This document shows, piece by piece, positions 9,871-64,000 of a stretch of 64,000 nt of DNA (within the stretch, counting starts at the first letter, position 1; every line of letters starts with the position of its first letter). Position numbers and translations under genes: made by a program. Below the pieces are notes generated by a model. The model was not told where the DNA came from and made no database searches. It saw only the letters and a list, made by a program, of their open reading frames with translations. This DNA comes from Leptolyngbyaceae cyanobacterium clean351 (GTDB lineage: Bacteria; Cyanobacteriota; Cyanobacteriia; DAIDHW01): assembly GCA_027451865.1 (NCBI GenBank), contig DAIDHW010000001.1:1063329-1127328 (forward strand), written 5' to 3'.

Positions 9871-10467
9871 TTAGGAAGCGTACATTGCCCGCAAGACCTC
9901 AGCTGGGTCAACCCAATCACCACCGTACTTAAGACCCCAGTGCAGGTGAGGTCCGGTAGTCCAGCCAGTCATGCCTACTCGACCGATGCGGGCTCCCGTG
10001 GGTACATCCTCTCCTTCAGCGATCGCAATACTCCCGGCTTTGTCCACTAGATAACGACGGCCGTCAATCACTTCGACCCCCCCCTGCATATGACAGTAGC
10101 GGTGTTGCCACTCCCCAGACTGAAGGACAATCATCGTGCCGCAACCAGTGTCATCGGAAACCACCAATACTTTACCCCCCCACCAGTTGCGAATATAACT
10201 CCCTAGGGGAGCGGCGATATCCAAGCCAGCATGGAACTCCTCCCCACTCCCCAGGGGGTTGGGCCGGTAGCCAAAGCCTGAGGTGTAGGCTTGGAAGTTT
10301 TCCACCGGGAAGGAAGCCTCCTTCCACAGGGAGTTAGAAGTAACTTGTCGCTGTGCCACCTGTTGGCCAAAGGCTGGGTGCAGGGAGAAAACCGCTACAC
10401 TGGTCAGACAAAAGACAGCTAGGAACAATGCCAGTCGGCGCTTAAGTCGTCTGGTAAGAGTAATCAT
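9871..10467 (-). CDS. Secreted M23 family metallopeptidase
   Basis: Signal peptide, HAGLDIA (HxxxD), TGPHLHW (HxH). Confidence 0.92.
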   Translation of the reverse strand: MITLTRRLKRRLALFLAVFCLTSVAVFSLHPAFGQQVAQRQVTSNSLWKEASFPVENFQAYTSGFGYRPNPLGSGEEFHAGLDIAAPLGSYIRNWWGGKVLVVSDDTGCGTMIVLQSGEWQHRYCHMQGGVEVIDGRRYLVDKAGSIAIAEGEDVPTGARIGRVGMTGWTTGPHLHWGLKYGGDWVDPAEVLRAMYAS

Positions 10468-10579: not shown

Positions 10580-12844
10580 ATGGCCACTGTTTATAGCCCA
10601 GCCACCTCCCCCCCGAAACAAAGACTCAGAGTCCCCAAGAAGCCCAAAAAAGAATACCTTTGGGTGATGCCTCACTCCGTAGAGTTCTTCACGGCACTGG
10701 CTAATTTCTTCAGGCCTGTCAGCTTAATAGCAAAATTGCTGGCCTTGTCCCTGATTGTAGTGGTGCCCGTGGGGGTGACCCTGTTTTTTAAAAATTTGCA
10801 AATAATCTTAACGGAAACAAAGTTTATCTACCAGGGGGGTATACCCTTCCTGCTACATATATTCATAAACATGTTTCTGATCGGCTTTTTTGTCAAGTTT
10901 GTCAAAAGTACAGTCTGTACCTCCTTTGGCGGCAAAGTTAAGGTTTTTGCTCTGACTTTAACCTTGGGGTTTCACCCCCGCTTCTACGTCGACCGCAAGG
11001 CGATCCTCCGGCTCCCTTGGCGTTACCGCATCATCACCTTCACTACCCCCATGTTATTTCGCTTGGGGATTATTTCCTATGCCGTCTTAATCTGGTACTG
11101 GACTCGGAACACCGGTATTGGCCTGACGGGCTCCCTAGGTACCTTTGCGCTCCTGTTAGCTCACTCCTGCTTCTTTGAGCTGCTGTTTGAGTCTACCCCC
11201 GTAGCCTCGGTGGATGGTTATTACCTATTGATCACCAGTCTAGGAATCCCGACTAACTCCCTGATGCGCACCTTTGAGGCGTTTGGCTTGATGATCAGTG
11301 GCCGTCCCCTGCCCCCTCACTTCAATTGGCGCAAGCGGCTCACCACTACTACTATCACCGTGCTCTCGGTGATTTTCCACCTATTGCTTGTGGGTGCCTT
11401 GAGCTTTCTGTGGGCCCACGGTTTTAATGACACCTACCCCGGCGTCTTGGGAGAGGGCTCAGAATATTTGTTCTATGTAATTTTCGTTACTATTGCCTTC
11501 TACCGACCGGTTAAACGGCGCGTTAAGGCCTACTGGCAGGAAAATCCCTGGCAGGGTCCAGCCTGGTTGCTGGTGGCAGGGCCGGTAGCGGTGATGACAG
11601 GGTTAGGCGTGCTTTTATTTTTGCCCTTCACCTACCAGCCCAGCGGCGATGTGCAACTGTTTGCTCCCCAAGTGGTGTCCATCCAAGCCCAGATTTCCGG
11701 AGTAGTCACCCAGGTCAACTACCCCGGGGGCACCACCCAGGTGATTCCAGCCAGCACCGTCTTAGGTACTATCACTTCTGTTGAAGTTAACAACTCCATA
11801 CTCACGACCGAAGATGCTATCCGCAAAGGCCACTCGGATATCAAGACCCTAAAATCCGAGTTGGCGCTGCTGCGCGATATCCCCCGCCCCGAGGATGTAG
11901 CAGTGGCTCAGCAGAAGGTTGCGATAGCTAACCAGGCGGTGGCTGTGGCTCAAGAGGGAGTGGCTGTGGCTGCAGCCCAACTCCGAACGGACCAGCAAAA
12001 ATCCCAGTTTAGTAGCCGCGAAGCAGCCCGTTATCAGCAGCTCTACCGGCGGGGGGTAGTATCCCTGCAGACTGAGGAGAACTTTACCAAGCAAGCTGAG
12101 GACGACCATGACCAGGTGCTTGTGGACCTAGAAGCAGTTAGTCAAGCCCAGCAGACCGTAGCCCAAAGTCAGGAAGTTTTGGCGGTGGCCAAGGGCAAAT
12201 TGCAAGAGGTACTCAGCGGTGCTGACCCGGCGGCCATTGCCCGTAAAGCCTCCCAGATGGAGGCAGCCGAGAAGAATCTGGCAAGGTTGCAGCAGGTATC
12301 TGCTTACTATCGCCAGCAGCAGTCCCAAGGGAAACTACTTATGCCCATCACCGGGCAGCTGGTCACCCCCTACCTCAATCAGAAGGTAGGCATTTACCTG
12401 AAGCAGGGTGAGACCTTCGCCTTGGCCTCCCCCATGGAGCATCTGCGCGCGGAAATGCAAGTGATCCAAACTGACAGCGCCATGGTTGAGCCGGGTCAAC
12501 TAGTACAGATTCACCTAATGGAGTTCCCAGATACTACGTTCCTTGGTCAAGTAGAGGCTCTGCAACCGCAGTTTTCTGAAGCTACTAACGAGTTGATCAT
12601 CCCCACCGATAGTTCAAGCGCTGATGACCCCCAGACTCCGCTCCAATATCTTTCACCTATTCCCTCCACTGACCCGGCTCGGGTACTGCGGGCGACCATT
12701 CGCCTGCATCCGGGCTACCCTGACTTGAAAGCTGGGATGAGTGGCTATGCCAGGATTCAGGGACCGATCCGGCCCTTTGGGGTAGCGCTCACCCACCCCT
12801 TCACCACCTTCTGGACCGTGGAGGGCTGGTCTTGGATGCCCTAG
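10580..12844 (+). CDS. Degenerate M50-like membrane domain fused to an HlyD-family periplasmic adaptor
   Basis: Multi-TM N-half with the M50-like scaffold (VCTSFGGKV...GFHPRFYVD; TPVASVDGYYLL). C-half has lipoyl halves (SIQAQISGVVTQV; LLMPITGQLV), a long coiled coil, and LKAGMSGYARI. Confidence 0.8.
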   Translation: MATVYSPATSPPKQRLRVPKKPKKEYLWVMPHSVEFFTALANFFRPVSLIAKLLALSLIVVVPVGVTLFFKNLQIILTETKFIYQGGIPFLLHIFINMFLIGFFVKFVKSTVCTSFGGKVKVFALTLTLGFHPRFYVDRKAILRLPWRYRIITFTTPMLFRLGIISYAVLIWYWTRNTGIGLTGSLGTFALLLAHSCFFELLFESTPVASVDGYYLLITSLGIPTNSLMRTFEAFGLMISGRPLPPHFNWRKRLTTTTITVLSVIFHLLLVGALSFLWAHGFNDTYPGVLGEGSEYLFYVIFVTIAFYRPVKRRVKAYWQENPWQGPAWLLVAGPVAVMTGLGVLLFLPFTYQPSGDVQLFAPQVVSIQAQISGVVTQVNYPGGTTQVIPASTVLGTITSVEVNNSILTTEDAIRKGHSDIKTLKSELALLRDIPRPEDVAVAQQKVAIANQAVAVAQEGVAVAAAQLRTDQQKSQFSSREAARYQQLYRRGVVSLQTEENFTKQAEDDHDQVLVDLEAVSQAQQTVAQSQEVLAVAKGKLQEVLSGADPAAIARKASQMEAAEKNLARLQQVSAYYRQQQSQGKLLMPITGQLVTPYLNQKVGIYLKQGETFALASPMEHLRAEMQVIQTDSAMVEPGQLVQIHLMEFPDTTFLGQVEALQPQFSEATNELIIPTDSSSADDPQTPLQYLSPIPSTDPARVLRATIRLHPGYPDLKAGMSGYARIQGPIRPFGVALTHPFTTFWTVEGWSWMP

Positions 12845-14115
12845 AAATTCACGGTCCCTGGTTTTACGCCGATCTGCGGGGGGTAGACTGGACTGGGCAG
12901 GACCGAGCCGGTGCCTGGTTGAGTGGAGCCAACCTCACCCGGGCCCAATTGGTGGGGGCAGACCTGCAGCAGGCCAACTTGGTAGGGGCTAGCTTACAGG
13001 CGGCAAACCTAGGGCAGGCGAAGCTCCAGGGAGCTAATCTGGTCCAGGCCAACCTCAGCGGTGCCAATCTCCAAGGAGCAGACCTGACAGGCGCCTACCT
13101 AGGAGAAACTAACTTCACGGCCGCCCAGCTAGGAGGAGCTAATCTCCAGGACACAGACCCTAACACTGGTAATTTCCATGGTGCCCTGGCGGACTGCCAG
13201 ACTCGCTTTCCCCCTGGCTTTATCCCCCCTGAGGCCTACTGGTTTCGACCAGGCTGCAGCTACCAGGGGTTCAACCTCCGGGGTCTGGACCTATCGCATC
13301 TGGACTTAACTGGGGTAGACCTGGCGGGGGCCTTCTGGGATGACTCCACTCGCCTACCCCCGGGGGTTTGCTGCCCGGGAGTCTGGCTGGGGCCGGGGGC
13401 TCAGCTGGCGGGTGCAAACTTGGGGGGCTTGAACCTGCAGGGGGCGGACCTAAGGGGGGCGGACTTGACTGGGGCGAAGCTAGTAGGCGCCGACTTAACG
13501 GGGGCAATCTTGGAGCGGGCGCGTCTCCTGCAGGCTGACTTGACGGGGGCAATCTTGGATCACACCCGGTTCCGGGGGGCAGTTTACGCTCCTGAAACCA
13601 GATTTCCCGAGGGCTTTGTGCCACTGGAGGCCTGCTGCATTAAGCCGGGGGCGGACCTGGCGGGGGTGGACTTAAGGGGGGCGGATCTGCGGCGGTTAGA
13701 CCTGCGGCGGGTGAACCTGCAGGGGGCCCAACTGGCGGGAGTACAGCTAGTAGGAGCTGTGTACAACCAACAGACTCGGTTCCCGGCTGACTTTACACCC
13801 GAGGGGGCCTACTGTCTGGGGCCGGGGGTTCAGCTGGCGGGGGCGGACCTTGGGGGACTAGACCTGCGGGGGGTGAATCTGAGCAGGGCTGACCTGACGG
13901 GAGCTAACCTAACTGGAACTACCTTGACGGGAGCTAACCTAACTGGAGCTACCTTGGCGGGAGCTAACCTAACTGGAGCTACCTTGACGGGAGCCCTATT
14001 TACCCAAGCCGACCTGAGCCACGCCAATCTGACTGGGGCCAGGGTTAAGGGAGCGGTGTGGGGTCAAGCCATCCTGACTGGGGCGGTCTTACCTACCGCT
14101 GAGCTTGGGAAGTGA
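12832..14115 (+). CDS. Pentapeptide repeat protein, modular
   Basis: A(D/N)LxG pentapeptide runs separated by four TR(F/L)Px(G/D) linkers. Start overlaps the upstream stop by 13 bp. Confidence 0.9.
   Translation: MDALEIHGPWFYADLRGVDWTGQDRAGAWLSGANLTRAQLVGADLQQANLVGASLQAANLGQAKLQGANLVQANLSGANLQGADLTGAYLGETNFTAAQLGGANLQDTDPNTGNFHGALADCQTRFPPGFIPPEAYWFRPGCSYQGFNLRGLDLSHLDLTGVDLAGAFWDDSTRLPPGVCCPGVWLGPGAQLAGANLGGLNLQGADLRGADLTGAKLVGADLTGAILERARLLQADLTGAILDHTRFRGAVYAPETRFPEGFVPLEACCIKPGADLAGVDLRGADLRRLDLRRVNLQGAQLAGVQLVGAVYNQQTRFPADFTPEGAYCLGPGVQLAGADLGGLDLRGVNLSRADLTGANLTGTTLTGANLTGATLAGANLTGATLTGALFTQADLSHANLTGARVKGAVWGQAILTGAVLPTAELGK
13891..13994 (+). repeat. 30-bp tandem repeat (~3.4 copies) encoding (T/D)LTGANLTG(A/T)
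   Basis: accttgacgggagctaacctaactggagct recurs with 1-2 substitutions per copy. Confidence 0.9.
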
Positions 14116-14118
14116 GGG

Positions 14119-14646
14119 TTATTCGGGGGTCGAGGTAATCACCTCGTTGGGACGGACAATCCGCTCCTGCCAGCGGAACCCCCGGCGGACCACGTGGGTG
14201 ATGGTTTGACTAGGCAGGTCAGGGCGGACCTCCCGCTCCACTACTCGGCAGGTATGGGGGTCTGGGTCCGAGGGAATTTCCAGGGGTACTACTCCACGCT
14301 TCTCTAAAAGGGTTAGGAGTTTAGAGCGCAAGCCCCCGAGGGAGCGGGGCAGGCGTCTTAAGGCAGGTGGCGCAGGGTCAGGGTTACGGGACCAGTAATC
14401 AATTAAGGGCTCAAGGCTATCGAATACTTCTAGGATTTCGAGGATCAGTTGCTCTTTTTCCGCTTGAGCATCCTTTTGGGCTTCCCGGAGGGCTCTTTCA
14501 CAGGTGGCGATTTGCTTGAGCTGATTTTGTAGGGATGCTTGCAGTTGCTCTTTGATCTGCGAGTCGAGGAGAAAAGCCCCGGAGGGTTGGGTAGGGGGTG
14601 GGTCGCAGCGGCGCCCTCTCAGGGCCTGTAACCATTTTTGAATCAT
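14119..14646 (-). CDS. GrpE-like nucleotide exchange factor
   Basis: Coiled coil, LILEILEVFDSLE helix, C-terminal beta domain DPDPHTCRVVE...TITHVVRRGFRWQERIVRPNEVIT resembling the GrpE signature. Confidence 0.8.
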   Translation of the reverse strand: MIQKWLQALRGRRCDPPPTQPSGAFLLDSQIKEQLQASLQNQLKQIATCERALREAQKDAQAEKEQLILEILEVFDSLEPLIDYWSRNPDPAPPALRRLPRSLGGLRSKLLTLLEKRGVVPLEIPSDPDPHTCRVVEREVRPDLPSQTITHVVRRGFRWQERIVRPNEVITSTPE

Positions 14647-14648
14647 AA

Positions 14649-15059
14649 TTATTCACTAAGTTTGATCAGGAGTTGCAGTTCTTCCGTCAGGACAGATTGT
14701 TCATCAACAACATCCTTTTCAGGTACATAGATGTTAGCCAATTCTGCAGCTAGGCTGTCAAACTCGGGCAAGATCTCCAGAAGAGTCTCCGGAACCGGGA
14801 TGGTTTGGGAGGTGAGCTTTTCCCGCCGGAACTTGGTCACGGCCGGTAAGACCGGAAACAACAAGTCCGCGATCAACCGCTTTTGGGGGTCTAGAAGAGA
14901 CTTTTGAGCCTCGCCGATAGCCTGGGGAGAGTAGCGCTTTTGCTTGAGAGCCGACATTTGGGCCCTGACGATTTCCTGCTTGTCGGCACTCCGTGACAGC
15001 CCCAATATATAGTAGGGGTTGGTTATGGGGGAGGAAACAGATACAGAATTTTCTGCCAT
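14649..15059 (-). CDS. J-domain-like protein lacking the HPD motif
   Basis: NPYYILGLSRSADKQEIVRA...RYSPQAIGEAQKSLLDPQKR aligns by eye to J-domain helices. Start set at ATG 15059 (alternative 15116). Confidence 0.75.
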   Translation of the reverse strand: MAENSVSVSSPITNPYYILGLSRSADKQEIVRAQMSALKQKRYSPQAIGEAQKSLLDPQKRLIADLLFPVLPAVTKFRREKLTSQTIPVPETLLEILPEFDSLAAELANIYVPEKDVVDEQSVLTEELQLLIKLSE

Positions 15060-15174
15060 TGTGGTTGATTTGGAAATCACTAGGTTGGTTCTGATGACAC
15101 GACTATCAGTGGGCATTGTGTCTGACTGAATTGCCCCATCAACATTACTTAGAGCTGATTCTTAGGGACTCGTA

Positions 15175-15193
15175 GGATGGAGCAGCTCCATCC
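15175..15193. repeat. Perfect palindrome ggatggagc-a-gctccatcc
   Basis: 9-bp arms with a 1-bp spacer, in the gap between the large repeat gene and the J-like gene. Confidence 0.7.
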
Positions 15194-15333
15194 ACTTATT
15201 CTCTAACATGTTAGTCGCCGCGGTACGTACCGGTAAGGCTTCTTGCTCTGGCGATGTAAGAGCAGACCGCCTGGTATTCCTAGGTCATTTATGAGATTGG
15301 TGAATAACCTAGTTGTTCGGTTATTAAACCAGA

Positions 15334-18300
15334 TCATTCCAGATCGTTTATATTTTTCCATAGTACTATCAGATCAAGAAAACTAGGATTACCAGAACTC
15401 ACCATTTCTAGAGCAATCTTTCTTAGTAGTTCCGCTAGAGCGTGTTTGAGTCTGGGGCTGCCGGAGGCTAGGGCCCTTTGGACGGCCTGTTGGATACTGC
15501 CCCTTGAAACCAAGGCCAGCAGGTTCTGCCACTCCCGATTTATTTGCTCAAGCTCTATGTTTTGCTTAACCAGACGAATGAGCTCAACAATCATGGGGTT
15601 ATTAGGGTCAATACTCCTGAGATGATTGAGTCTTGTTAGTCCTTCCTCTGCAGATATCTTCTCCTTAGCTAAGTCATCACGAATTTTATCAACGCTACTG
15701 CCAACATAAAGTACTTTCGCCCCAGGGGTATGCAGTAATTCATACCAAAACTTTCCCAGTTCAAGCCTTTCCTCCAGGGATCTAAGACCCTGACTAAGCT
15801 TTCCTAGTAATTCGTTGAGAGTGTTATTCCACCCGGGATTGGCATTGATCTCAGACTTTATTTTCTCGAGTACGGGGAGTGATGAACGCCAATTCCCAGC
15901 CCTTAATTGGTTGCAACCCCAGTGGTAGTTGACTAGGCTGAGGGCAAATTTAGTCACCGGTGTATTAGGGGTGGCCTTAGGCTTAATTTCCATGGCCCTT
16001 GGCACGTTGTCTTGAAGGCAAGCTGCCACGGCTACCCCCCAGGAACTATAGAGGGCCTTATAGACCTTGTCGTCATAACTCTCGCGGCCGGTGAAATTGG
16101 TAGCCCAGTCCCGGTTAAACAACCGCAGGTATAGTCCTGGGGAAAGCAGGATCGAGTTAGACCTAGGTTCGGGCCGGGGGGACATTTCCTGAACAGACAT
16201 CTCCAGGTTGTACATATCCTTGATTCGGAGGTCATTTGAGGCAAGCACCAGCTCCCCTAGGCGACTTTTCATAGTCTCGGATATTTCCGGATAGTTAACC
16301 CCTGATGGCAGCCAGGGAATATTTTTGAGAGATGGGTCTTGATCTAGATTTAGTAAGACGGTGGACAGGATGGGAATCAGGTCCATCAAGGTGCTAGGCG
16401 TAGTAATGGCCCGGTAGTAGGCAGCCACCATCAAGTTATGTAGGGTAACCGGAGTGCGAAGGGATTCTGTTTGCCAGGCCGACCAGACATGAGTAAATAT
16501 TGTCGACCAGCTCTGACTCTGCCACAGTTGCTGCTCCAACCCGGGCTTAATATGGTTCTCGAGGTTGTACTTGACGTTTGGGTAGGCGGATAGGACACTG
16601 AGGTTTTTTAGGGAAATGGTTTGAGCCGCCTGCAGATCTCCCGAATCCACCTTATTTTCGATCTCACGGACAAGATGTATTGCTTGGTTTTTGTCCAGGA
16701 ATGTCTGGAGGGAATTGAGTTTATTTTTCACTGCAGGGGCCTGGCAGTGACGCCACTGTTCAACGGCCTTAGGTAATAAGCCAACCTTAATATAGGCTAA
16801 GCCAAGGAGGTAATATTTTAGCTCCAGATCTTGAATGGGCCCCTGGGCTAGGTGCTCAACCTCTTGCACCAGCTCCTCAGTGTCTTCTCGGGTGAGTTTT
16901 GCGTCGATTAACTGCTTCACGCGGATAACTAACCGGCGCCTTGCCACCTGCTGGGCCTTGGCAGGAGTAGGAGCCAGTCGTTTATACCCTACTTGGGCAG
17001 CGCTCCAGTCCCCGGCTGCCTCAGCTGACAGAGCAGTTGCTAACTCCTGCTCAAACTTCCCCCCGCAAATCTGCAGGGTATCTTGTAACTCCCCCAGTAG
17101 GGCCTGGCCTGCGGGTCTGGGAAAGTAATTTTGAGCTAATTGCAATCTGCGAATCGCTAGCTGATATCGCCGCTTCTCGGTCAGGTCCCGCACATTGTCG
17201 ATGACCTTCTCGTAGGCCTCCTCGCGCTCAATCTGCCGGGGGAGTTCCTGAAGAATTACCCCTAGGCCTGAGCTCTCCACCCAGTCTAGGCGCCCCGCGG
17301 CTTTGGCTAAGTCGTAGGCTTTTTGGTAGAGTAGGCGGCTGTCCTTAAAAAACAGTTGCTTGTACTTCTGGTCGGCCTGGGATTTGAGGTCTGCAAATTC
17401 CTGTTCCTGCCGAGCCAAACCCGCCCTAAAGTCGGCGATTAACTGGTGACCATCAGGGCGGTCAAAGCTGCCGATGAGCTTTTCTAGGAGGGTGAGGGCT
17501 TCTTTGTACCTGGACTGCCGCGCTAATTTGTACCTGGACTGCCGCGCTAAATCCCGAGCCTGGGATAAACCTGCCTCGTAGGCCTCCTCCCGCTCAATCT
17601 GCCGGGGGAGTTCCTGAAGAATTGCCCCCAGGCCTGAGCTCTCCACCCAATCCAGGCGCCCCGCAGCTTTGGCTAAGTCGTAGGCTTTTTGGTAGAGTAG
17701 GCGGCTGTCCTTAAAAAACAGTTGCTTGTACTTCTGGTCAGCCTGGGATTTGAGGTCTGCAAATTCCTGCTCCTGCCGAGCCAAACCCGCCCTAAAGTCG
17801 GCGATTAACTGGTGACCATCAGGGCGGTCAAAGCTGCCGATGAGCTTTTCCAGGAGGGTGAGGGCTTCCTTGTACTTGGATTGCCACGCTAAACCCCGAG
17901 CCTGGGATAAACCTGCCTCGTAGGCCTCCTCCCGCTCAATCTGCCGGGGGAGTTCCTGAAGAATTACTCCCAGGTCTGAGCTCTCCACCCAATCCAGGCG
18001 CCCCGCGGCTTTGGCTAAGTCGTAGGCTTTTTGGTAGAGTAGGCGACTGTCCTTAAAAAACAGTTGCTTGTACTTCTGGTCAGCCTGGGATTTGAGGGCT
18101 TGGAATTCCTGCTCCTGCCGAGCCAGACTTGATCTAAAGTCAGCGATTAACTGGCGAACATCAGGGCGGTCAAAGCTGCCAATTAGCTTTTCTAGGAGGG
18201 TGAGGGCTTCTTGGTACCTGGACTGCCGCGCTAAACCCCGAGCCTGGGATAAAGCTGCCTCGTAGGCCTCCTCCCGCTCAATCTGCTGGGGGAGTTCCTT

Positions 18301-18549
18301 GAGAGTTACCCCTAGGCCTGAGCTCTCCACCCAGTCTAGGCGCCCCGCGGCTTTGGCTAAGTCGTAGGCTTTTTGGTACTTTTGCAGGCCCTGCTTAAAC
18401 CGTGACCGCTCACAGAGCTGATCCCCGAGGCTTCTTAATTCCTGGAACTCCTTGAGGCAAGCTTTGGTCCGCGCCGCTTTGGCCTTTTTTAGTTGCTGGA
18501 TAACTTGATAGACAACCAGGACGACCGCAGCAACTGCAATCAGGTACAT
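15334..18549 (-). CDS. Membrane-anchored large alpha-helical (TPR-like) protein with 114-aa tandem repeats
   Basis: 1071 aa. N-terminal hydrophobic helix followed by a Lys/Arg-rich stretch, repeated YQKAYDLAKAAGRLDWVESS units, and TPR-like segments (YYLLGLAYIKVGLLPKAVEQW). RBS ggag upstream. Confidence 0.85.
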   Translation of the reverse strand: MYLIAVAAVVLVVYQVIQQLKKAKAARTKACLKEFQELRSLGDQLCERSRFKQGLQKYQKAYDLAKAAGRLDWVESSGLGVTLKELPQQIEREEAYEAALSQARGLARQSRYQEALTLLEKLIGSFDRPDVRQLIADFRSSLARQEQEFQALKSQADQKYKQLFFKDSRLLYQKAYDLAKAAGRLDWVESSDLGVILQELPRQIEREEAYEAGLSQARGLAWQSKYKEALTLLEKLIGSFDRPDGHQLIADFRAGLARQEQEFADLKSQADQKYKQLFFKDSRLLYQKAYDLAKAAGRLDWVESSGLGAILQELPRQIEREEAYEAGLSQARDLARQSRYKLARQSRYKEALTLLEKLIGSFDRPDGHQLIADFRAGLARQEQEFADLKSQADQKYKQLFFKDSRLLYQKAYDLAKAAGRLDWVESSGLGVILQELPRQIEREEAYEKVIDNVRDLTEKRRYQLAIRRLQLAQNYFPRPAGQALLGELQDTLQICGGKFEQELATALSAEAAGDWSAAQVGYKRLAPTPAKAQQVARRRLVIRVKQLIDAKLTREDTEELVQEVEHLAQGPIQDLELKYYLLGLAYIKVGLLPKAVEQWRHCQAPAVKNKLNSLQTFLDKNQAIHLVREIENKVDSGDLQAAQTISLKNLSVLSAYPNVKYNLENHIKPGLEQQLWQSQSWSTIFTHVWSAWQTESLRTPVTLHNLMVAAYYRAITTPSTLMDLIPILSTVLLNLDQDPSLKNIPWLPSGVNYPEISETMKSRLGELVLASNDLRIKDMYNLEMSVQEMSPRPEPRSNSILLSPGLYLRLFNRDWATNFTGRESYDDKVYKALYSSWGVAVAACLQDNVPRAMEIKPKATPNTPVTKFALSLVNYHWGCNQLRAGNWRSSLPVLEKIKSEINANPGWNNTLNELLGKLSQGLRSLEERLELGKFWYELLHTPGAKVLYVGSSVDKIRDDLAKEKISAEEGLTRLNHLRSIDPNNPMIVELIRLVKQNIELEQINREWQNLLALVSRGSIQQAVQRALASGSPRLKHALAELLRKIALEMVSSGNPSFLDLIVLWKNINDLE
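17209..18378 (-). repeat. Intragenic tandem repeat, unit 342 bp (342, 342, 366 plus a ~120 bp partial)
   Basis: The anchor ctttggctaagtcgtaggctttttggta starts at 17301, 17667, 18009 and 18351. Confidence 0.97.
17503..17550 (-). repeat. Perfect 24-bp tandem duplication (LARQSRYK x2) nested in one repeat unit
   Basis: tttgtacctggactgccgcgctaa at 17503-17526 and 17527-17550. Confidence 0.97.
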
Positions 18550-18566
18550 AGAGCTCTCCGGTTGAG

Positions 18567-19064
18567 TTAGGGGCGAGCGGGGGGCAGAAGATTATGGGTG
18601 ATCGGGATGACTAGCTTTTGGCCAATCTGTAGGCGACCGGGGTCTGGTTGGAGTTGGGGGTTGGCCTGATAGATGGCCACGAAGGTGGTTAACTGCCCAA
18701 ATTTGGCCGCGATGGCACTCAGGTTATCCCCGGGCTGGACTAGGTAAACCACCTGGGGGGGGGCAAGTTTGCGGGCGGGGGGGCGGGGGGCAACGGTCGG
18801 AGGAGAGACGTGACTTACCTGATGGGAAATCACGACTGCCAGGGGAGCCGGGGGGACCCGGAGGCGCAGTGTAGCCCACACCGCCAGGACCACTGCTAGA
18901 GGGAGCACTACCCAGGGGGTCAGGTTAGTCCTGGTAAGGACGGGGGGGGGTGCAAACTGGGGCAACTGAGCCAGACTAACCAGGGCTGTCAAGTCAGCAT
19001 CACAGTTAGGGCAGTGGGTGTGCTCTACCTGCTGATAGCCGCACACTGGACAGTCAAGGCTCAT
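18567..19064 (-). CDS. Zinc-ribbon / transmembrane / LysM protein
   Basis: CPVC...CPNC, TM WVVLPLAVVLAVWATL, Pro-rich linker, LysM YLVQPGDNLSAIAAKF...IYQANPQL...LQIGQKLVIP. ATGA overlap with the Hsp70 gene. Confidence 0.88.
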   Translation of the reverse strand: MSLDCPVCGYQQVEHTHCPNCDADLTALVSLAQLPQFAPPPVLTRTNLTPWVVLPLAVVLAVWATLRLRVPPAPLAVVISHQVSHVSPPTVAPRPPARKLAPPQVVYLVQPGDNLSAIAAKFGQLTTFVAIYQANPQLQPDPGRLQIGQKLVIPITHNLLPPARP

Positions 19065-21298
19065 CTCCTAATCCCCTTCTGAACTACTTGGCCTGGAGAG
19101 GTTTGGCTGAAGCTAGGTTCTAGTTCTCGGCACAGCTCCAGGAGCGGCTGCGCATCCCCAGCGTTAAAGGCTCTCATGGCCTGCTCAAACCGGAACTCTA
19201 ACTGTTGAGCCCGGGCCGGGTCGCTCCCCTCCACCCTCGCAATCCCCTCGAGGCACAGTACGGGGAGGTGAGCCTCCGGGGCTAGAGAGTCGATTTCCCG
19301 CTCTACATCTTGAGCCAGTTTTTCGGTCCCTCCCCAATCCCGTCGCTCCTGGGCAGCCTCGAGCTGGGTTTGGAGCTTGCGCAACCGGTCCTGCTGGGGG
19401 GACCCAATCAGCCGGTCACTCAGGTCGAGGTAGTTTCGAGTGCGTCTGGCCCAAAAAGCTGCTTCAATTCGAGCATCAGAGAGCTCCCACTCCAATTTGC
19501 CGTACTCATCACGGGCTTTTTGCAGCATGTCGGGGCGCTCTCGACCGCTCTCATCAATAATCTGACTGGCGGCCTTGATCACCGCCGCCGCCATTTCAGC
19601 CGCCTTCTGGGCCCCAAAACTGGTGAGCCGTCCCTCTTCATTGAGCTCATCAATAAAGCTTTCAAGATCCCGGTAGACCTTCTCGTCAGCTTGACCCCGG
19701 GAAAACCGGCAACTTACCTTGGAGGATGGGTCCTGCTTGAGGCTGGCAGTGATCTGTAGGGGGCTACTCTGCTCATCTAGTTCTAGGAGCACGACCACGG
19801 CGGTGCCAGCGGGATGATTATCTTCTAGTCCTAGCCACAGCTGCCCTACCTCCTCCTCCACCGTAACCTGGTCAAGATTACTGCGCACCTCATCGGGACT
19901 GAGGAACTTTAACTGTACTATTCTTTGGTCATCCGCCACGGTACGGAAGGTTTTCTGCTGGCGCACCGGCAGAATATCCCCTTTACTAATCACCTTTTCC
20001 ATACTCCCATCAGCCAGCTGGATGAAGTAGTCGCGGGAGACGGTGGAGGTCTTATCTACCATCCCAGCTGCCACGATCGCGGCTCCCTCCGCCACAGCGT
20101 ACATGGGCCGGGGGTGGCTAACTACCTTGTCGCTGCCAAAGGCGGCCCGGACCTGCTGTTGAACGTAGGGGATTTGGGAGGAACCCCCCACCAACAGCAC
20201 CGCATCCACCAGGTCCGGAGTATATTCGGAAATATTGATCGCCTCGTGGCAGATCTGAATCGTCCGCTGCACTTGGGCTGCAATCATCTCCTCAAGCCGG
20301 GTGCGGGTCAGCTCTACCTGCACAGGGATGATCATGCCGGCTTCCTTCAGGGGTGAATCGGGGTTTACCAGAACTTTGGTCTGGGTGCTAAGGTCGATTT
20401 TGGCTTTTTCAGCTGCCCTCCTCAGGTCCGCCTGAAACCGCACCCGGTCGTGGAAGGGCATCTGGGTAATTACCTGGTCCACGGCGGCTGCATTTTCCCA
20501 GCCCTCCTCTTCGGCAATTTTTTGCTTCACGTAGTTGACTATCTGTAAGTCAATGTCATCTCCTCCCAGCCACAGGTCCCCAGCCTTGCCCTGCTCAAGA
20601 AATTGGGTGCCGGCGCAGGTGATCACCGAGGCATCAAAGGTACCTCCACCGTAGTCGTACACTAGGATGGTTTTGACCTCAGCACTATCGGGGCTAAATC
20701 CGTAGGAAATTGCTGCCGCCGTCGGTTCCGCTAGCAATTCTAGGGGTGTAATTCCCGCTAACAAAGCCGCATCCCGGGTGGCCGATCGTTGCTTGTCATT
20801 GAAGTAAGCCGGGATAGTAATCACCGCCTGGTCAATCACATCCCCTCGGTAACCCGGCCGCTCCCGCAAGGCCGCTTGGCCGTTAGCTACTACCTGCTTG
20901 AGAATGGCCGCGGAGATTTCCTCCGGCCGGTACTCCCGTTGGGGCTGGCCCGCAAAAAATACTACTAAGCTATTCTCAGTGCCATCCCTGGGAGCGGCAA
21001 TTTTGTAGCCTACCCGGGCTTTCTGGGTAGCCACCGCCTCTTCCCCAAACCCCCGGCCCATTAGACGCTTGATCGAGGTAATCACGTTCCCGGGGTCACT
21101 CCCTAGGTAATTGTAGGCGGTTTCCCCCACCACTAGTTCAGGCTTCTCCTTGAGCCAGGCCACCATCGAACGGGTCAGCTTACGCTCCGGCACTGAGTTA
21201 GTGGCGGCAGTCACCACCTCGGGGTCCTGGTCAATCACAAACTTGAAAGCGCCGACGGAATTAGTGGTGCCGAGATCGATACCGATCGATTTACCCAT
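19061..21298 (-). CDS. Atypical Hsp70-family protein
   Basis: GIDLGTTNS, SIKRLMGR, TIPAYFND, EPTAAA, DYGGGTFD, LGGDDID, LLVGGSSQIP. C-terminal half is unlike DnaK. Start at ATG 21298. Confidence 0.93.
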   Translation of the reverse strand: MGKSIGIDLGTTNSVGAFKFVIDQDPEVVTAATNSVPERKLTRSMVAWLKEKPELVVGETAYNYLGSDPGNVITSIKRLMGRGFGEEAVATQKARVGYKIAAPRDGTENSLVVFFAGQPQREYRPEEISAAILKQVVANGQAALRERPGYRGDVIDQAVITIPAYFNDKQRSATRDAALLAGITPLELLAEPTAAAISYGFSPDSAEVKTILVYDYGGGTFDASVITCAGTQFLEQGKAGDLWLGGDDIDLQIVNYVKQKIAEEEGWENAAAVDQVITQMPFHDRVRFQADLRRAAEKAKIDLSTQTKVLVNPDSPLKEAGMIIPVQVELTRTRLEEMIAAQVQRTIQICHEAINISEYTPDLVDAVLLVGGSSQIPYVQQQVRAAFGSDKVVSHPRPMYAVAEGAAIVAAGMVDKTSTVSRDYFIQLADGSMEKVISKGDILPVRQQKTFRTVADDQRIVQLKFLSPDEVRSNLDQVTVEEEVGQLWLGLEDNHPAGTAVVVLLELDEQSSPLQITASLKQDPSSKVSCRFSRGQADEKVYRDLESFIDELNEEGRLTSFGAQKAAEMAAAVIKAASQIIDESGRERPDMLQKARDEYGKLEWELSDARIEAAFWARRTRNYLDLSDRLIGSPQQDRLRKLQTQLEAAQERRDWGGTEKLAQDVEREIDSLAPEAHLPVLCLEGIARVEGSDPARAQQLEFRFEQAMRAFNAGDAQPLLELCRELEPSFSQTSPGQVVQKGIRR

Positions 21299-21608
21299 GG
21301 TGTTTAGCGTGGTGGGAATGGCAGGGGTCAATACCCCACCGGGGGGAATTGCCCTGTATTATAACCCTCCCCCCCGGAATGTGTACATAAAGCCTAGGAT
21401 GACAAATGTATTTACCAGTAGGGGCATCCTGCCCGCTGTAATTAAGGCGTAGCAAGAGTTAACAAAACCTGAATCGGCCGGGAGAAGTCTGTTATATCTA
21501 GGATGCACCGGGTCAAGGCCTTGGACACCACCCCTGACCCGGCGGCCCGTGGCTCCCCTCTAGCTGGACCTATAACCCTCTAGGATGTCCTATTTACTTT
21601 ACTAGTTC

Positions 21609-25652: not shown

Positions 25653-25779
25653 AGATTCTTGGGCAGAGGAGTAAATAAATTCTGCACCCAGTTTGATCCA
25701 AACTGAGTTTGTCTTAATACTGTCTTAGGTCCACGTGATGACCACGACAGTCTGTAGAACACCCCCCTATTCTAGGAAC

Positions 25780-26709
25780 ATGACCTCGGCTTTCTTCCCC
25801 ATTCCCGATCCTCCTCCTGATTTCAAGTCAGGATTTGTAGCCATTGTGGGACGGCCTAACGTCGGGAAGTCGACCCTCGTCAACAGTCTGGTGGGTCATA
25901 AGATTGCCATCACCTCCCCTACCGCTCAGACTACCCGGCGGATGCTGCGGGGGATTTTGACCACTAGCACCGCCCAGATCGTTTTTTTGGATACTCCCGG
26001 CATTCACAAACCCCAACATCTGCTTGGTCAGGTCCTGGTAAAAAATGCCCTCACCGCCTTGGGGTTAGTAGACTCAGTGTTGTTTGTAGCGGACGGGTCA
26101 GGGGTAGTGGGGCGGGGAGACCTATACATTGCCGATCTATTAGCTAAGGTGGCGGTTCCGGTAGTAATGGGCCTGAACAAAGCCGACCTCCAGCCAACCG
26201 CCTGCGCTGAGCTAGACCGGGGATACCAGGAGTTGGCCGCGCGTCACCACTGGTCCCTTGTCAAGTTTTCGGCCTTGACAGGGGCAGGGCTGCTACCCCT
26301 GCAGGAGCAGTTGCTCACATTTCTGGAGCCGGGTCCCTACTACTACCCTCCCGATTGCCACACAGACCAGCCAGAAGTTTTGATCTTAGCAGAACTAATT
26401 CGGGAGCAGATCCTGCATCACACCCGTGCCGAAATCCCCCATGCGGTGGCGGTAGTCATTGACCAGCTGGAGGAAACACCTAAGATCACCCGAATTCTAG
26501 CTACTATTTATGTGGAGCGCCCCAGCCAACGGGCAATCCTCCTGGGGAAAGGCGGCCTGATGCTCAAGTCCATCGGCACCACGGCCCGCCAAGAAATCCA
26601 GAAGCTGATCTGTGGTCCGGTTTATCTGGAGCTATTCGTCAAAGTGCAACCCCACTGGCGCCAGTCGCCTGGCCAACTGGCAGAATTAGGCTACCGCGTA
26701 GAGTCCTAG
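25780..26709 (+). CDS. era: GTPase Era
   Basis: GRPNVGKST, AQTTR, DTPG, NKAD, KH-domain region. Start at ATG 25780. Confidence 0.96.
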   Translation: MTSAFFPIPDPPPDFKSGFVAIVGRPNVGKSTLVNSLVGHKIAITSPTAQTTRRMLRGILTTSTAQIVFLDTPGIHKPQHLLGQVLVKNALTALGLVDSVLFVADGSGVVGRGDLYIADLLAKVAVPVVMGLNKADLQPTACAELDRGYQELAARHHWSLVKFSALTGAGLLPLQEQLLTFLEPGPYYYPPDCHTDQPEVLILAELIREQILHHTRAEIPHAVAVVIDQLEETPKITRILATIYVERPSQRAILLGKGGLMLKSIGTTARQEIQKLICGPVYLELFVKVQPHWRQSPGQLAELGYRVES

Positions 26710-39178: not shown

Positions 39179-39430
39179 AAGTAATCCTGGGGTTAATGGG
39201 CAGTAACGGCACCGAAAGCTAGAAAGCAATCTAAACTATGACTACAATCTTAAGCCAATTGGGGGATCCCAGGTGATGTACTGCCAGAGCTTCCCCCACT
39301 TCCACAAGGCACCACAGCACAGCCTAAAATTTGGACTTGTCTTCTGACTACCTTTTCCGCTATCATCATGCCGCACCTTGTTCTAGGAGGGTGTGTGTTT
39401 CTTCGTACTAGCCCCTACCACATACCAGTA

Positions 39431-41140
39431 ATGAAAACTTTTATTGGCTCTTCTGCCCGGGTTGTTGCTTTGGGCTTTTTAGCGGCCCTCCTGCCCAGGG
39501 TAGCCCTGGCCCAAATCCCTCCCAGCATCCAGCCAGGCCAAATCCAGCGGCAACTAGCTCCCCTGCCGCCCTCTACTGGGCCTGCCCCTAATGTTCCAGT
39601 ACCAGTTCCGGGACAAGGTCCTAGCGTTGCCCCTGGCAATAATGAGGTGACCTTTACCATTACCTCCGTAGACATCGAAGGTTCTACGGTTTATAGCCAG
39701 GCACAACTGCGGCCCCTCTACGCCCCACTGCTAGGGCACCCTATCCATCTAGCGGATTTGTACGCCCTGGCTAGTCGTATCACCGCCATGTATCAGAAAG
39801 ATGGCTACCTACTGTCTGAGGCGGTGGTGCCGGAGCAGACCATCGAGAATGGCCAAGCCCGGATCCAGGTTATTGAAGGCTACGTACAATCGGTGAATTT
39901 TACTGGGGTCTCCCCCCGCCTGCAGCATACACTCCAGGGATATGCCCACCATATTGAGGCTTCTCGCCCCCTCAACAATAGTGTCCTGGAGCGCTATCTG
40001 CTCCTGATGAGTGACCTCTCAGGCCTGCACCTGAACGTCGCTCTCAATCCCGGTACGGTGCCGGGGGCAAGTGTCCTCGATGCCTCGGTGAACCTGAAGC
40101 CCTTTAGCCCCTTCATCGAGTTTGATAACCGGGGCAGCCAGCAGGTAGGCCCGCTGCGATTACAGGCGGGGGTTTACCTCAACTCTTTACTCGGAGAGGG
40201 CGAGCGGTTCAACATTGACTTTGCCACCACCCCAGAGGACGTCAGTCAGCTGCAGTACGGGGATGCCGGGTTAGTATTTCCCATTGGGAGTAATGGTCTG
40301 ACCGTTAATGTGGATGGCTCCTACACTGCCGTCCGGCCAGGGGGTACCTTCCAAACCTTCGACTTGAACGGCAGTAGCACCGTGATCAATATGGGGGTCA
40401 GTTACCCTCTGATCCGCTCGCGGGCCGAAAACCTCAACGTCAGCATCGGTTTCCAATACAACGACAGTAAAAACCTAACCCTGTTTACCGGCACGCCGGT
40501 GTACATCAGCGCAGACCGCCTGCGAGTCCTTAGCCTTGGCGTCGACTACAACCGCACTGACAGATTCGGCCTGACCACCGCCGACGCTACCCTGGCCGAA
40601 GGCCTAGGCATTTTAGGAGCAACCACTAATGGCACCTCCGCCCGCCCTCTGTCCGTGGCCAATGGCAGTGCTCAGTTTACTAAATTTAGCTTCCAAGCCA
40701 CCCGCCTTCAGACTTTGCCGGATCACTTCAGCCTCTTCCTGCTAGCTAACGGGCAGGTAACGGGGGACACCCTGCTGACGGAGGAGCAGTTCGGAGTAGG
40801 GGGGGCTACCTGCGGCAGCGCCTTTGTGTCCTTCCAGATTGCGGGAGACTCCGGGTACTGTGTGCGGACGGAACTAGCCCGCTCCTTCACCTACCGGTTC
40901 CAGCATCAAAACATGTTCACTCAGCCCTACATCTTTGCCGATTACGGTCAGACTTTCCTCAATAGTCCCACAGCCGCCCAGTCTTCTAGCAGCAGGCTGG
41001 CTTCTGCCGGTCTGGGGGTGAGGCAAAACTTCGGTCAGTACGTCAACCTGCAAGTGGAAATGGCTTTCCCCCTTCAGGACACGGGTACCGGCTTCACCCA
41101 AGACCCGCGTCTGTTCTTTACCCTACAGTCTTTGTTCTAG
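39431..41140 (+). CDS. ShlB/FhaC/HecB-family two-partner secretion outer membrane protein (TpsB)
   Basis: Signal peptide ending ALA-Q, POTRA motifs (ITAMYQKDGY; LERYLLLMSDLSG), FDNRGS, beta-barrel, C-terminal Phe. Confidence 0.9.
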   Translation: MKTFIGSSARVVALGFLAALLPRVALAQIPPSIQPGQIQRQLAPLPPSTGPAPNVPVPVPGQGPSVAPGNNEVTFTITSVDIEGSTVYSQAQLRPLYAPLLGHPIHLADLYALASRITAMYQKDGYLLSEAVVPEQTIENGQARIQVIEGYVQSVNFTGVSPRLQHTLQGYAHHIEASRPLNNSVLERYLLLMSDLSGLHLNVALNPGTVPGASVLDASVNLKPFSPFIEFDNRGSQQVGPLRLQAGVYLNSLLGEGERFNIDFATTPEDVSQLQYGDAGLVFPIGSNGLTVNVDGSYTAVRPGGTFQTFDLNGSSTVINMGVSYPLIRSRAENLNVSIGFQYNDSKNLTLFTGTPVYISADRLRVLSLGVDYNRTDRFGLTTADATLAEGLGILGATTNGTSARPLSVANGSAQFTKFSFQATRLQTLPDHFSLFLLANGQVTGDTLLTEEQFGVGGATCGSAFVSFQIAGDSGYCVRTELARSFTYRFQHQNMFTQPYIFADYGQTFLNSPTAAQSSSSRLASAGLGVRQNFGQYVNLQVEMAFPLQDTGTGFTQDPRLFFTLQSLF

Positions 41141-62184: not shown

Positions 62185-62208
62185 AGGGATTTACAGGTCT
62201 CCTTGCCA

Positions 62209-64000
62209 TCATCCAATTGCGCCCATACGTGCTAGGAAGAATGCCCAAGTTGTGACAATCCCCCCTAACAAGTAGTGAGCTACACCTACGGCCCGGCCCT
62301 GAATAATACTCAGAGCGCGGGGCTGAATTGCTGGGGCAACCTTCAACTTGTTATGCGCCCAGACAATGGATTCGATCAACTCTTGCCAGTAGCCGCGGCC
62401 ACTAAACAGGAACATCAGACTAAAGGCCCAGACGAAGTGCGCCCCTAGGAACAGCAAGCCGTAGGCCGACAGAGCGGAGCCGTAGGAGTTGATCACCTGC
62501 GCAGCTTGGGCCCACAGGAAGTCTCGCAGCCAGCCGTTAATAGTGATCGCACTTTGGGCAAAGTTGCCGCCAGCTAGGTGAGACACAGTACCGTCTGCAT
62601 TCAGGGTACCCCAGACGTCGGACTGCATCTTCCAGCTGAAGTGGAAAATGACTACCGAGATGCAGTTGTACATCCAGAAGAGGCCGAGGAACACGTGGTC
62701 CCAACCAGACACTTGACAGGTACCACCACGGCCTGGGCCATCACAGGGGAACCGGAAGCCGAGATTACCCTTGTCAGGGATGAGGCGCGAGCTACGGGCA
62801 AACAGCACGCCCTTAAGCAGGATCAGGACTGTGACGTGGATGGTGAAGGCATGGATATGGTGGACCATAAAGTCTGCCGTCCCCAAGGTAATTGGCATCA
62901 TGGCCACTTTCCCAGCCACGGCCACCACATCACCGCCAAAGGCCACGCTAGCAGAGGCTAGGGCGTGGGGGGCAGTACCCCCAGGAGCCAGGGTGTGGAT
63001 GTGTTGGACCCATTGGGCAAACACCGGCTGCAGTTGAATGCCTGTATCGGAGAACATATCCTGGGGACGACCAAAGGCTCTCATGGTGTCGTTGTGCACA
63101 TACAGACCAAAGCTGTGGAAGCCAAGGAAAATGCACACCCAGTTTAAGTGAGAGATAATCGCATCCCGGTGCCGAATCACCCGGTCTAGAAGGTTGTTTT
63201 GATTCACTACCGGGTCGTAGTCACGGACCATAAAAATGGCGGCGTGGGCAGCAGCACCGGTAATAAATATCCCCCCTAACCACATATGGTGGGTAAACAG
63301 GGACAGTTGGGTGGAGTAATCCGTTGCCAGGTAAGGGTAGGGAGGCATGGAGTACATGTGCTGAGCAACAATGATGCTCAGAGAGCCTACCATGGCCAAG
63401 TTGATGGCCAGTTGGGCGTGCCAAGAGGTGGTGAGCACCTCGTAGAGACCCTTGTGACCCTCCCCAGTGAACGGCCCCTTATGGGCTTCAAGAATCTCCT
63501 TAATACTGTGGCCAATGCCCCAGTTAGTCCGGTACATGTGGCCGGCGATGATGAATAGGACTGCGATAGCCAGGTGGTGGTGGGCTTGGTCCGTCAGCCA
63601 GAGACTACCCGTGACCGGATTTAAGCCTCCCTTAAAGGTGAGAAAGTCAGAGTAGGCACCCCACTGGAAAGTAAAGAAAGGTACTAAACCCTTGGCAAAA
63701 CCGGGGTAAAGGTCACCCATCAACTTCGGGTTGAGGATGAATTCGTGGGGGAGAGGAATGTCCTTGACGGCCACCCCACTGTCTAGGAGCTTATTAATGG
63801 GCAAAGAGACATGAATCTGGTGTCCAGCCCATGCCAGGGAGCCCAAGCCAAACAGCCCAGCTAAGTGGTGGTTGAGCATAGACTCTACGTTTTGGAACCA
63901 CTCTAGCTTCGGAGCTCGCTTGTGGTAGTGGAACCACCCTGCAAACAGCATCAAGCCCGCCATCACCAAGCCGCCGATGGCAGTGACGTAGAGCTGGAAG
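62209..64000 (-). CDS. psaA: Photosystem I P700 apoprotein A1 (5' end runs off the window)
   Basis: The frame stays open to the window edge ([27 protein letters not shown]). [13 protein letters not shown] and [22 protein letters not shown] present. Confidence 0.99.

Follow-up and report, generated by a model that had tools for sequence, protein, structure and literature searches.

A conserved five-gene cyanobacterial operon links a divergent Hsp70 set to a predicted peptidoglycan-binding membrane protein and a helical-repeat scaffold

The genome of Leptolyngbyaceae cyanobacterium clean351 carries five co-oriented genes, confirmed on the minus strand at 14119-21298 of a 64,000-nucleotide stretch of contig DAIDHW010000001.1 (hereafter the window, with coordinates counted from its first letter). 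They encode an Hsp70-like protein, a small protein with a zinc ribbon, a transmembrane (TM) helix and a LysM domain, a large scaffold resembling tetratricopeptide repeat (TPR) proteins, a J-like protein and a GrpE-like protein. The arrangement recurs far beyond chance in cyanobacterial genomes and is inherited as a unit; the operon appears to be uncharacterised and to have gone unnoticed as a unit, and would add a further Hsp70 system to those of cyanobacteria. Most likely it acts in a housekeeping or regulatory process related to the envelope, and not in immunity. The general model favored here is a dedicated Hsp70 machine, tethered to the membrane and to peptidoglycan, at the cytoplasmic face of the plasma membrane, and it is given roughly even odds (about 0.5). 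The five genes are as follows.

19061..21298, minus strand: Hsp70-like protein, 745 amino acids (aa); ATG at 21298, stop at 19061
18567..19064, minus strand: zinc-ribbon/TM/LysM protein, 165 aa; its ATG overlaps the Hsp70 stop codon (ATGA)
15334..18549, minus strand: scaffold (TPR-like), 1071 aa; 17 bp downstream of the LysM gene
14649..15116, minus strand: J-like protein, 155 aa as the longest open reading frame (ORF); probable start M20 at 15059, from orthologue alignment
14119..14646, minus strand: GrpE-like protein, 175 aa; 2 bp beyond the J-like stop

The start of the Hsp70-like protein at 21298 yields MGKSIGIDLGTTNS and agrees with the N-termini of its orthologues. A first-pass annotation of the same DNA had described this gene set, orientation and spacing, and the ORF coordinates bear it out; unmentioned there was a gap of 217 bp that separates the 1071-aa gene from the J-like gene (274 bp with M20 as the start). 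The start/stop overlap and the short spacers elsewhere in the cluster indicate co-translation and co-transcription.

The distribution of the system was established with two scans. The first covered one genome per species with the family-specific C-terminal region of the Hsp70-like protein and returned at least 96 relatives. The second used the motif GKAGDxWLGGDD and returned at least 119 matches, adding Microcystis, Crocosphaera, Aphanocapsa, Geminocystis, Pleurocapsa, Waterburya, Chroococcopsis, Spirulina, Prochloron, Coleofasciculaceae and Chroococcidiopsidaceae. More than 100 full-length orthologues of the Hsp70-like protein were found at ~50% identity, and every named one is cyanobacterial. 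Loci were checked by tblastn with the proteins of the window and of Nostoc sp. PCC 7120. In the set that preceded the second scan, the order Hsp70, zinc-ribbon/LysM protein, scaffold, J-like protein, GrpE is present in 72 of 82 loci and in 72 of the 73 that are long enough; of the ten exceptions, nine are loci cut by a contig end and the tenth, from Cyanomargarita, is a fragment of an Hsp70. In the lineages that the second scan added, every locus of sufficient length has this order except that of Prochloron. The same five-gene order is kept in Microcystis, Crocosphaera, Chamaesiphon, Oscillatoriales and Thermosynechococcus, the loci of Pleurocapsa and Spirulina follow it up to their contig limits, and Thermosynechococcus sichuanensis E542, with a genome of 2.65 Mb, has the complete cluster. 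Co-occurrence in other genomes had been proposed as a check on the idea of a dedicated Hsp70/J-like/GrpE-like set linked to a LysM membrane protein and a TPR scaffold, and the constant order in these loci and in the further lineages upholds that idea. Clustering of flanking ORFs from 65 loci revealed no further family in common beyond sub-lineage synteny. With shuffled flanks around five constant genes, the cluster is a self-contained module that is kept together.

In Nostoc sp. PCC 7120 (L002), the four other genes line up behind the Hsp70 orthologue in unchanged order. Identities between the window proteins and their PCC 7120 counterparts are 53% (Hsp70), 38% (zinc-ribbon/LysM protein), 26% (scaffold), 45% (J-like) and 40% (GrpE-like). 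The PCC 7120 genes are taken to be all4477-all4473 because All4481 (Get3d, PDB 3IGF) lies upstream, All4473 is a GrpE paralogue and the coordinates of all4472-all4476 in Flaherty 2011 fit; the number all4477 follows from position, as that gene is absent from the Flaherty 2011 table. Two PCC 7120 neighbors were considered as cluster members and rejected: the 289-aa ORF after GrpE (probably all4472) is not conserved elsewhere, and the Get3d/ArsA gene (All4481), upstream in Nostoc, is unlinked in other lineages. Synechocystis slr0086 was considered as an orthologue and set aside; it is not known to have such neighbors.

Two Nostocaceae metagenome-assembled genomes (MAGs) contain a divergent sub-type (L077 7488-7730 and L081 10996-11199). 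Its small protein, of 68-81 aa, is reduced to a zinc ribbon and TM helix, LysM being absent; the scaffold measures only 579-597 aa, and the identity of the Hsp70 to its PCC 7120 counterpart is ~55%. The sub-type may represent a paralogous branch of the system. Among the matches listed, a single one has a non-cyanobacterial label, a contig of a MAG labeled Sphingobacterium thalpophilum (L087, CALRTB020000011.1), whose Hsp70-like gene is 66% identical to the queries. Its neighbors, an adjacent TnpB gene, a kinase and rRNA methyltransferases, did not settle the origin of the contig, which is probably a mis-binned cyanobacterial one. Apart from that contig, the dedicated Hsp70 system has so far been seen only in cyanobacteria.

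The Hsp70-like protein belongs to the Hsp70 superfamily, with a Pfam HSP70 score of 300.5 bits against a cut-off of 20.6. It comprises a nucleotide-binding domain (NBD; residues 1-412), a β-sandwich substrate-binding domain (SBD; 415-531), a nine-helix C-terminal domain (537-731) and a disordered tail. An AlphaFold2 (AF2) model (predicted local distance difference test score, pLDDT, 84.1; pTM 0.77) reproduces the NBD, the β-sandwich SBD, the nine extra helices and the disordered tail, and Foldseek aligned it to DnaK, BiP and Ssb at TMt values up to 0.86 and 25-30% identity (0.84-0.86 for DnaK and BiP, with a root-mean-square deviation of ~3 Å). It scores well below the NCBIfam equivalogs for DnaK, at 252-291 bits against cut-offs of 648-1019 (NF001413, 290.8 against 648; TIGR02350, 280.3 against 822.55; NF009946, 252.5 against 1019; NF009947, 252.2 against 1002). 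The same applies to HscA, at 174-254 bits against cut-offs of 620-743 (TIGR01991, 246.1 against 708.55), and no isc or hscB genes were found in the flanks. The protein is thus distinct from housekeeping DnaK, as had been supposed. In an alignment to Escherichia coli DnaK, the equivalents of the catalytic residues K70, E171, D194 and D201 are retained, as are those of the peptide-binding pocket residues F426, Q433, V436 and I438. The protein is a bona fide two-domain Hsp70 and, with these residues kept, is predicted to be competent both as an ATPase and in peptide binding.

Other features of the Hsp70 family depart from DnaK. The hydrophobic interdomain linker (DVLLLD/VLLL in DnaK) is replaced by DK(V/T)xTV. 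In the complex between DnaK and a J-domain, R167 and N170 of DnaK touch the His-Pro-Asp (HPD) motif of DnaJ; across 20 orthologues of the Hsp70-like protein, the R167 position is occupied by L, K, Y, I or A and the N170 position by A, P or S. Orthologues, the variants that lack LysM among them, conserve the final residues (I/V)x(T/K)G(L/I)x(R/K), which lie in the tail that is disordered in the AF2 model. A conserved end on a disordered tail is a pattern typical of a docking motif, and it may serve as one here.

The J-like protein shows a corresponding departure. It scores 17.4 bits with Pfam DnaJ, below the cut-off of 27.8, and weak DnaJ matches recur in 15 of 15 orthologues; an hhalign comparison with canonical J domains (manually entered reference sequences) gave a probability of 94.8% and an E-value of 5e-8, suggesting a degenerate J domain. 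The HPD motif is missing in all 15 orthologues, and the alignment places a 13-residue deletion over HPD and the start of helix III. The conserved segments ADYLRPILP and LPEFDGL follow the J domain region, and in Nostocales and some other lineages TPR modules are appended to the protein. Loss of HPD in the J-like protein together with loss of R167/N170 in the Hsp70 makes canonical J stimulation by this partner unlikely, and the sequences argue for an adaptor or regulator, as opposed to a canonical ATPase trigger.

The GrpE-like protein is, by its profile match, a clear but divergent GrpE, presumably the private exchange factor of the Hsp70 set. It scores 53.4 bits with Pfam GrpE (cut-off, 25.8) and its Thermosynechococcus orthologue scores 82.5 bits, while the window protein falls below the cut-off of all NCBIfam housekeeping GrpE equivalogs. 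All4473, the probable PCC 7120 orthologue, has been called a GrpE paralogue (bioRxiv 10.1101/2025.04.14.648684). The first-pass annotation had counted all three components of the chaperone cycle in this cluster. Hsp70, J-like and GrpE-like proteins are indeed present, but they are not all intact: the J-like protein lacks HPD and the Hsp70 lacks R167/N170.

A separate J-domain protein that does carry HPD, of ~310-370 aa, is encoded near the cluster in an Anabaena-type subset of Nostocales and in Pseudanabaena, at relative positions that vary. It lies ~2 kb downstream of GrpE in nine loci (L008, L010, L012, L015, L025, L027, L029, L041 and L060) and upstream in two others (L048 280-1386 and L074 1-720). 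A signal peptidase I gene is also nearby in several of these loci. The HPD-bearing protein could be the true J partner of the system or a remnant of synteny.

The 165-aa product of the second gene is a bitopic protein with an N-terminal four-cysteine zinc ribbon (CPVC-x11-CPNC), an L..L..LP segment, a TM helix, a Pro-rich linker and a C-terminal LysM. The LysM domain scores 40.4 bits with Pfam (cut-off, 20.9), and the zinc-ribbon cysteines and downstream LP motif show little or no variation across 16 orthologues.

In the 1071-aa scaffold, a TM helix at the N-terminus is followed by four copies of a 114-aa helical module, then by a TPR region and finally by a conserved α-solenoid of ~500 aa at the C-terminus. 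The hydrophobic N-terminus spans residues 1-19, and the modules lie at residues 58-171, 172-285, 286-407 and from 408 onward, three of them being recent tandem duplicates beside an ancestral copy. At the DNA level this tandem amplification appears as 342-bp units at 17210..18378 on the minus strand (TRF: 342-bp period, 92% matches), and the third module copy contains a perfect in-frame 24-bp microduplication (17503..17550, minus strand). Orthologues have a single copy of the module, so the length of the N-terminal arm of the scaffold varies between lineages (559-1071 aa). Over 692 aa, the window protein is 26% identical to its PCC 7120 orthologue (probably All4475). Assignment as a TPR scaffold comes from the family profile, which matches consensus TPR structures in the PDB with an E-value of 1.6e-20; Pfam TPR_2 matches 10 of 14 orthologues, and the window protein alone has a weak TPR_10 match. 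The AF2 model of residues 380-1071 (pLDDT, 90.9) is an all-α solenoid, for which Foldseek returned only generic TPR scaffolds (Naa15, IFT-A, APC subunits, OGT, P58IPK and DdvA) at TM-scores below 0.2. Word-index searches at the protein level gave almost no matches to the scaffold, and an exhaustive HMMER search found only 88 cluster representatives of the family among 1.84 billion. The C-terminal domain is therefore essentially private to the system and is found only with the cluster.

Several other labels on the scaffold were rejected. Matches of the 1071-aa protein to PRTRC_E, Csn2, JetA and Type_III_YscG are spurious and arise only from the amplified repeats of this genome (1 of 14 orthologues). 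Two public orthologues (P0121 and P0128) are labeled [quoted passage not shown]; the HExxH motif occurs in 4 of 52 family members and is absent here, which makes the label a pattern-match artefact.

The N-terminus of the scaffold takes three forms. It is a TM helix in this genome, in Chamaesiphon and in few genomes in all, whereas most species have a brief hydrophobic or amphipathic peptide there (for example MGLFDFIGK or LGIGIVD). The scaffold had been annotated initially as TM-anchored; this is true of the window protein but not of most orthologues, which carry the short peptide instead. In Pseudanabaena cinerea (L038 11605-14580), a TM-LysM-TM unit is fused onto the scaffold, besides a separate gene for the zinc-ribbon/TM/LysM protein. 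Spacing like that of the fusion locus is also seen in L048 and L070. Three interchangeable N-terminal devices place the scaffold, by prediction, at the inner face of the plasma membrane, and the Pseudanabaena fusion would tie it directly to peptidoglycan binding. The trans-envelope anatomy first suggested from the window alone is therefore plausible and is strengthened by this fusion.

In the model of a tethered Hsp70 machine, the small protein would sit in the membrane with LysM on periplasmic peptidoglycan and with its zinc ribbon and amphipathic segment facing the cytoplasm. At the same membrane, held by a TM helix, a hydrophobic peptide or a TM-LysM-TM unit, the TPR solenoid would serve as an assembly platform. 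The Hsp70 would dock on this platform, with its conserved C-terminal tail and the TPR region as the candidate contact, by analogy with EEVD-TPR docking. The HPD-less J-like protein may act as an adaptor or regulator, with a logic like that of Pam16 or of the J-like domain of ARC6/ZipN. ATP-driven binding and release, reset rapidly by the private GrpE, would assemble, disassemble or remodel a membrane-bound client, which may be the zinc-ribbon tail or the scaffold itself.

Several observations weigh against this model. Every contact in it comes from domain logic. LysM is missing from L077 and L081 and degenerate in L073 and L052 (4 of 16 orthologues), which means that the core mechanism must be able to do without peptidoglycan binding, and the universal part of the small protein is the zinc ribbon with the TM helix. 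The earlier association of a LysM protein with the Hsp70 set consequently stands as a linkage across cyanobacteria, but not for LysM as a universal component. In Prochloron sp. (L139 1-5707), only the Hsp70, LysM and scaffold genes are adjacent, and a convergent 932-aa ORF lies where the genes for the J-like and GrpE-like proteins would be expected; in this symbiont the cluster has been split or in part lost. The distribution is patchy, with no picocyanobacteria, Synechocystis or Synechococcus elongatus among the matches listed in the motif scans. Finally, expression in PCC 7120 is weak in standard culture, which fits a conditional role as well as housekeeping. In the supplement of Flaherty 2011, all4472-all4476 are annotated "unknown protein" with low read counts; at 0, 6, 12 and 21 h after nitrogen step-down, reads were 0, 4, 43 and 30 for all4474 and 3, 6, 15 and 22 for all4475, values too low to be firm.

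Among the alternatives, a sensor of cell-wall status is rated unlikely. LysM would read the condition of the peptidoglycan (damage, remodelling or division) and signal through the TM helix to the zinc ribbon, and the Hsp70 cycle would be a switch that releases or sequesters a regulator held by the scaffold. The combination of a zinc ribbon in the cytoplasm, a single TM helix and a sensor-type domain on the other side of the membrane does resemble bitopic signaling proteins. The transmembrane anti-sigma factor DdvA appears among the weak Foldseek TPR matches, although its TM-score of ~0.14 is no better than that of many generic TPR proteins. The weak expression in PCC 7120 and the rise of all4474 and all4475 after nitrogen step-down are compatible with a conditional function, but the counts behind that rise are very low. 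Neither the cluster nor its borders contain a conserved sigma factor, kinase or transcription factor, and LysM, the proposed sensor, is dispensable in some lineages.

It is improbable that the operon encodes a membrane-tethered Hsp70 motor for pulling or extraction, similar to PAM, the mitochondrial import motor, that would pull, insert or extract a membrane or envelope protein. The parallel runs part by part, from an Hsp70 with intact ATPase and pocket residues and a membrane-associated scaffold to an HPD-less J-like protein, a private GrpE and a zinc-ribbon protein. However, Pfam finds no zf-DNL, Tim44 or Pam16 homology in these proteins, the cluster is without a translocon or channel gene, and the cytoplasmic location of the Hsp70 leaves the direction of pulling ambiguous. 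A bolder version, offered as speculation and rated quite improbable, would cast the operon as a previously unrecognised bacterial equivalent, in its logic, of the import motor of mitochondria: an ATP-driven Hsp70 engine bolted to the plasma membrane via the TPR tether and the peptidoglycan-anchored zinc-ribbon protein, transmitting force or conformational change across the envelope. If that were true, an import-motor-like engine would, for example, insert, extract or reposition envelope proteins and would constitute a new class of envelope energy coupling alongside the Ton/Tol/Mot-type systems.

Defense was raised in the first-pass annotation as an anti-phage or contact-dependent option. An anti-phage or conflict system, thematically related to the GTPase-centered Hsp70-GrpE-DnaJ/TPR systems predicted by Kaur et al. 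2020, is now very improbable. Those predicted conflict systems do combine Hsp70, GrpE and DnaJ- or TPR-fused proteins (PMC7159879). The scaffold evolves quickly (26% identity compared with 52% for the Hsp70) with recent repeat amplification in its gene, and the distribution among the matches listed is patchy, both of which would suit such a system. Against this, PADLOC-DB 2.0 gave no matches for the Hsp70, LysM and GrpE-like proteins and only sub-threshold (E 1e-3) or repeat-driven ones for the other two, none of them credible: the repeats of the scaffold matched Csn2 (30 bits), JetA and CARF, and the J-like protein matched DrmMI. No GTPase, nuclease, effector or effector-associated domain was found in the five proteins with Pfam. 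The flanks are housekeeping in character and differ between lineages, with no defense genes found there. Order and content are uniform across cyanobacterial orders and the cluster is kept in the 2.65-Mb genome of Thermosynechococcus. Identities of 50-60% between lineages look vertical rather than horizontal, as far as the sequences can tell. A search of a plasmid collection gave no match. That ordinary chaperone paralogues lie beside unrelated membrane genes by chance, as separate entries in public records might suggest (Hsp70 family protein, hypothetical protein), is effectively refuted by the 72 of 73 loci that keep the order while flanks vary and by the overlap and short spacers between the genes.

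The surroundings of the cluster in the window are housekeeping in character. GC content is even, at ~57%, and the genes around the cluster include psaA/psaB, sufB, one for glycogen phosphorylase and a probable era; psaB and psaA confirm that the window is cyanobacterial chromosome. The features of note are as follows.

9871-10467, minus strand: M23 peptidase-domain protein, adjoining the cluster
10580-12844: HlyD-like membrane-fusion protein, 754 aa, adjoining the cluster
12832-14115: pentapeptide-repeat protein, 427 aa, convergent with the GrpE-like gene
21358..21387, minus strand: candidate sigma-70-type promoter TGTACA-18-TATAAT, ~60 nt upstream of the Hsp70 start, from a consensus scan only
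25735..26709: probable housekeeping Era (MMR_HSR1 and KH_2 domains), the only GTPase nearby
39368-41140: ShlB/FhaC-type two-partner-secretion transporter
59956-63969: psaB and psaA; psaA continues past the window end

The M23, HlyD-like and pentapeptide-repeat neighbors are envelope-related; other genomes do not conserve them. Promoter-like sites in the region are no more numerous than expected from shuffled sequence. No convincing minus-strand terminator was found inside the cluster, and an Rfam search of the region returned no RNA family. In other genomes, the gap before the J-like gene is ~15-290 bp and often <40 bp, so the 217 bp seen here is unusually long. This gap (15117-15333) contains a perfect palindrome with an 8-bp stem (GGATGGAGC.GCTCCATCC) at 15175-15193, without a T-run on the coding strand. 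The palindrome could be a processing or stability element or could lie near an internal promoter.

In cyanobacteria, several DnaK paralogues are known to have specialised tasks, among them thylakoid biogenesis and the coupling of pili to polysaccharide secretion. No functional study of this cluster was found in the open full-text literature, in keeping with the earlier statement that it had no assigned function. All4473, as a GrpE paralogue, is the only all447x gene mentioned in the main text of that literature. Three aspects of the system are unusual. It has its own exchange factor, whereas published Nostoc work counts one GrpE. Loss of HPD in the J partner is accompanied by loss of the matching Hsp70 contacts, which implies non-canonical control of the Hsp70 cycle. 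The Hsp70 system is also predicted to be tied to the membrane and cell wall. Because the genetically tractable PCC 7120 and the structural-biology workhorse Thermosynechococcus both carry the operon, both what it does and how it works are open to direct testing. Should a clear phenotype emerge, it would reveal a new envelope-associated process, and a negative result for defense would help to curate lists of candidate defense systems.

Among known systems, the predicted GAP1-N2 conflict systems of Kaur et al. 2020 (PMC7159879) have a GTPase and FNIII-repeat proteins as their hallmarks, and most are from actinobacteria and firmicutes. The cyanobacterial operon is like them in encoding a private Hsp70 and GrpE beside DnaJ- and TPR-containing proteins, but GTPase and FNIII domains are absent from its five proteins (Pfam) and from the conserved neighbors. 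The divisome protein ARC6/ZipN (Ftn2) of cyanobacteria and plastids has a J-like domain in a membrane-associated, TPR-containing context; it differs in protein family and architecture, and its likeness to the cluster J-like protein is one of context. Specialised Hsp70s with private J partners encoded nearby are represented in E. coli by HscC with DjlC/DjlB, one of the J partners being membrane-anchored, and by HscA/HscB. The J partners of HscC and HscA keep HPD, and these systems are not known to have a private exchange factor, LysM protein or TPR scaffold. The cluster Hsp70 is further set apart from HscA by its low equivalog scores and by the absence of isc genes nearby.

The mitochondrial PAM consists of mtHsp70, the tether Tim44, Pam18, the HPD-less Pam16, the GrpE-type Mge1 and the zinc-ribbon protein Hep1/Zim17. 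In its parts list, the operon would match PAM with a membrane-tethered Hsp70, an HPD-less J-like protein, a GrpE-type factor and a zinc-ribbon partner, which is a functional analogy only. The sequence homology detected is confined to Hsp70 and GrpE, and, unlike PAM, the operon has neither an HPD-bearing J subunit nor a translocase. A parallel in theme comes from Nostoc punctiforme, where DnaK1/DnaJ3/GrpE links type IV pili to hormogonium polysaccharide (McDonald et al. 2022, PMC9239167). In both cases a cyanobacterial Hsp70 would be devoted to one envelope-associated process, with a TPR-containing co-chaperone and GrpE. The two systems are not identical: the N. punctiforme DnaK1 is a canonical DnaK encoded at a different locus (grpE-dnaK1-dnaJ11) and uses the housekeeping GrpE, with a single GrpE counted in that genome (PMC9239167). 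The operon described here, unlike the DnaK1 system, combines an Hsp70 below the DnaK cut-offs with a private GrpE paralogue, an HPD-less partner, a zinc-ribbon/TM/LysM protein and a scaffold of its own.

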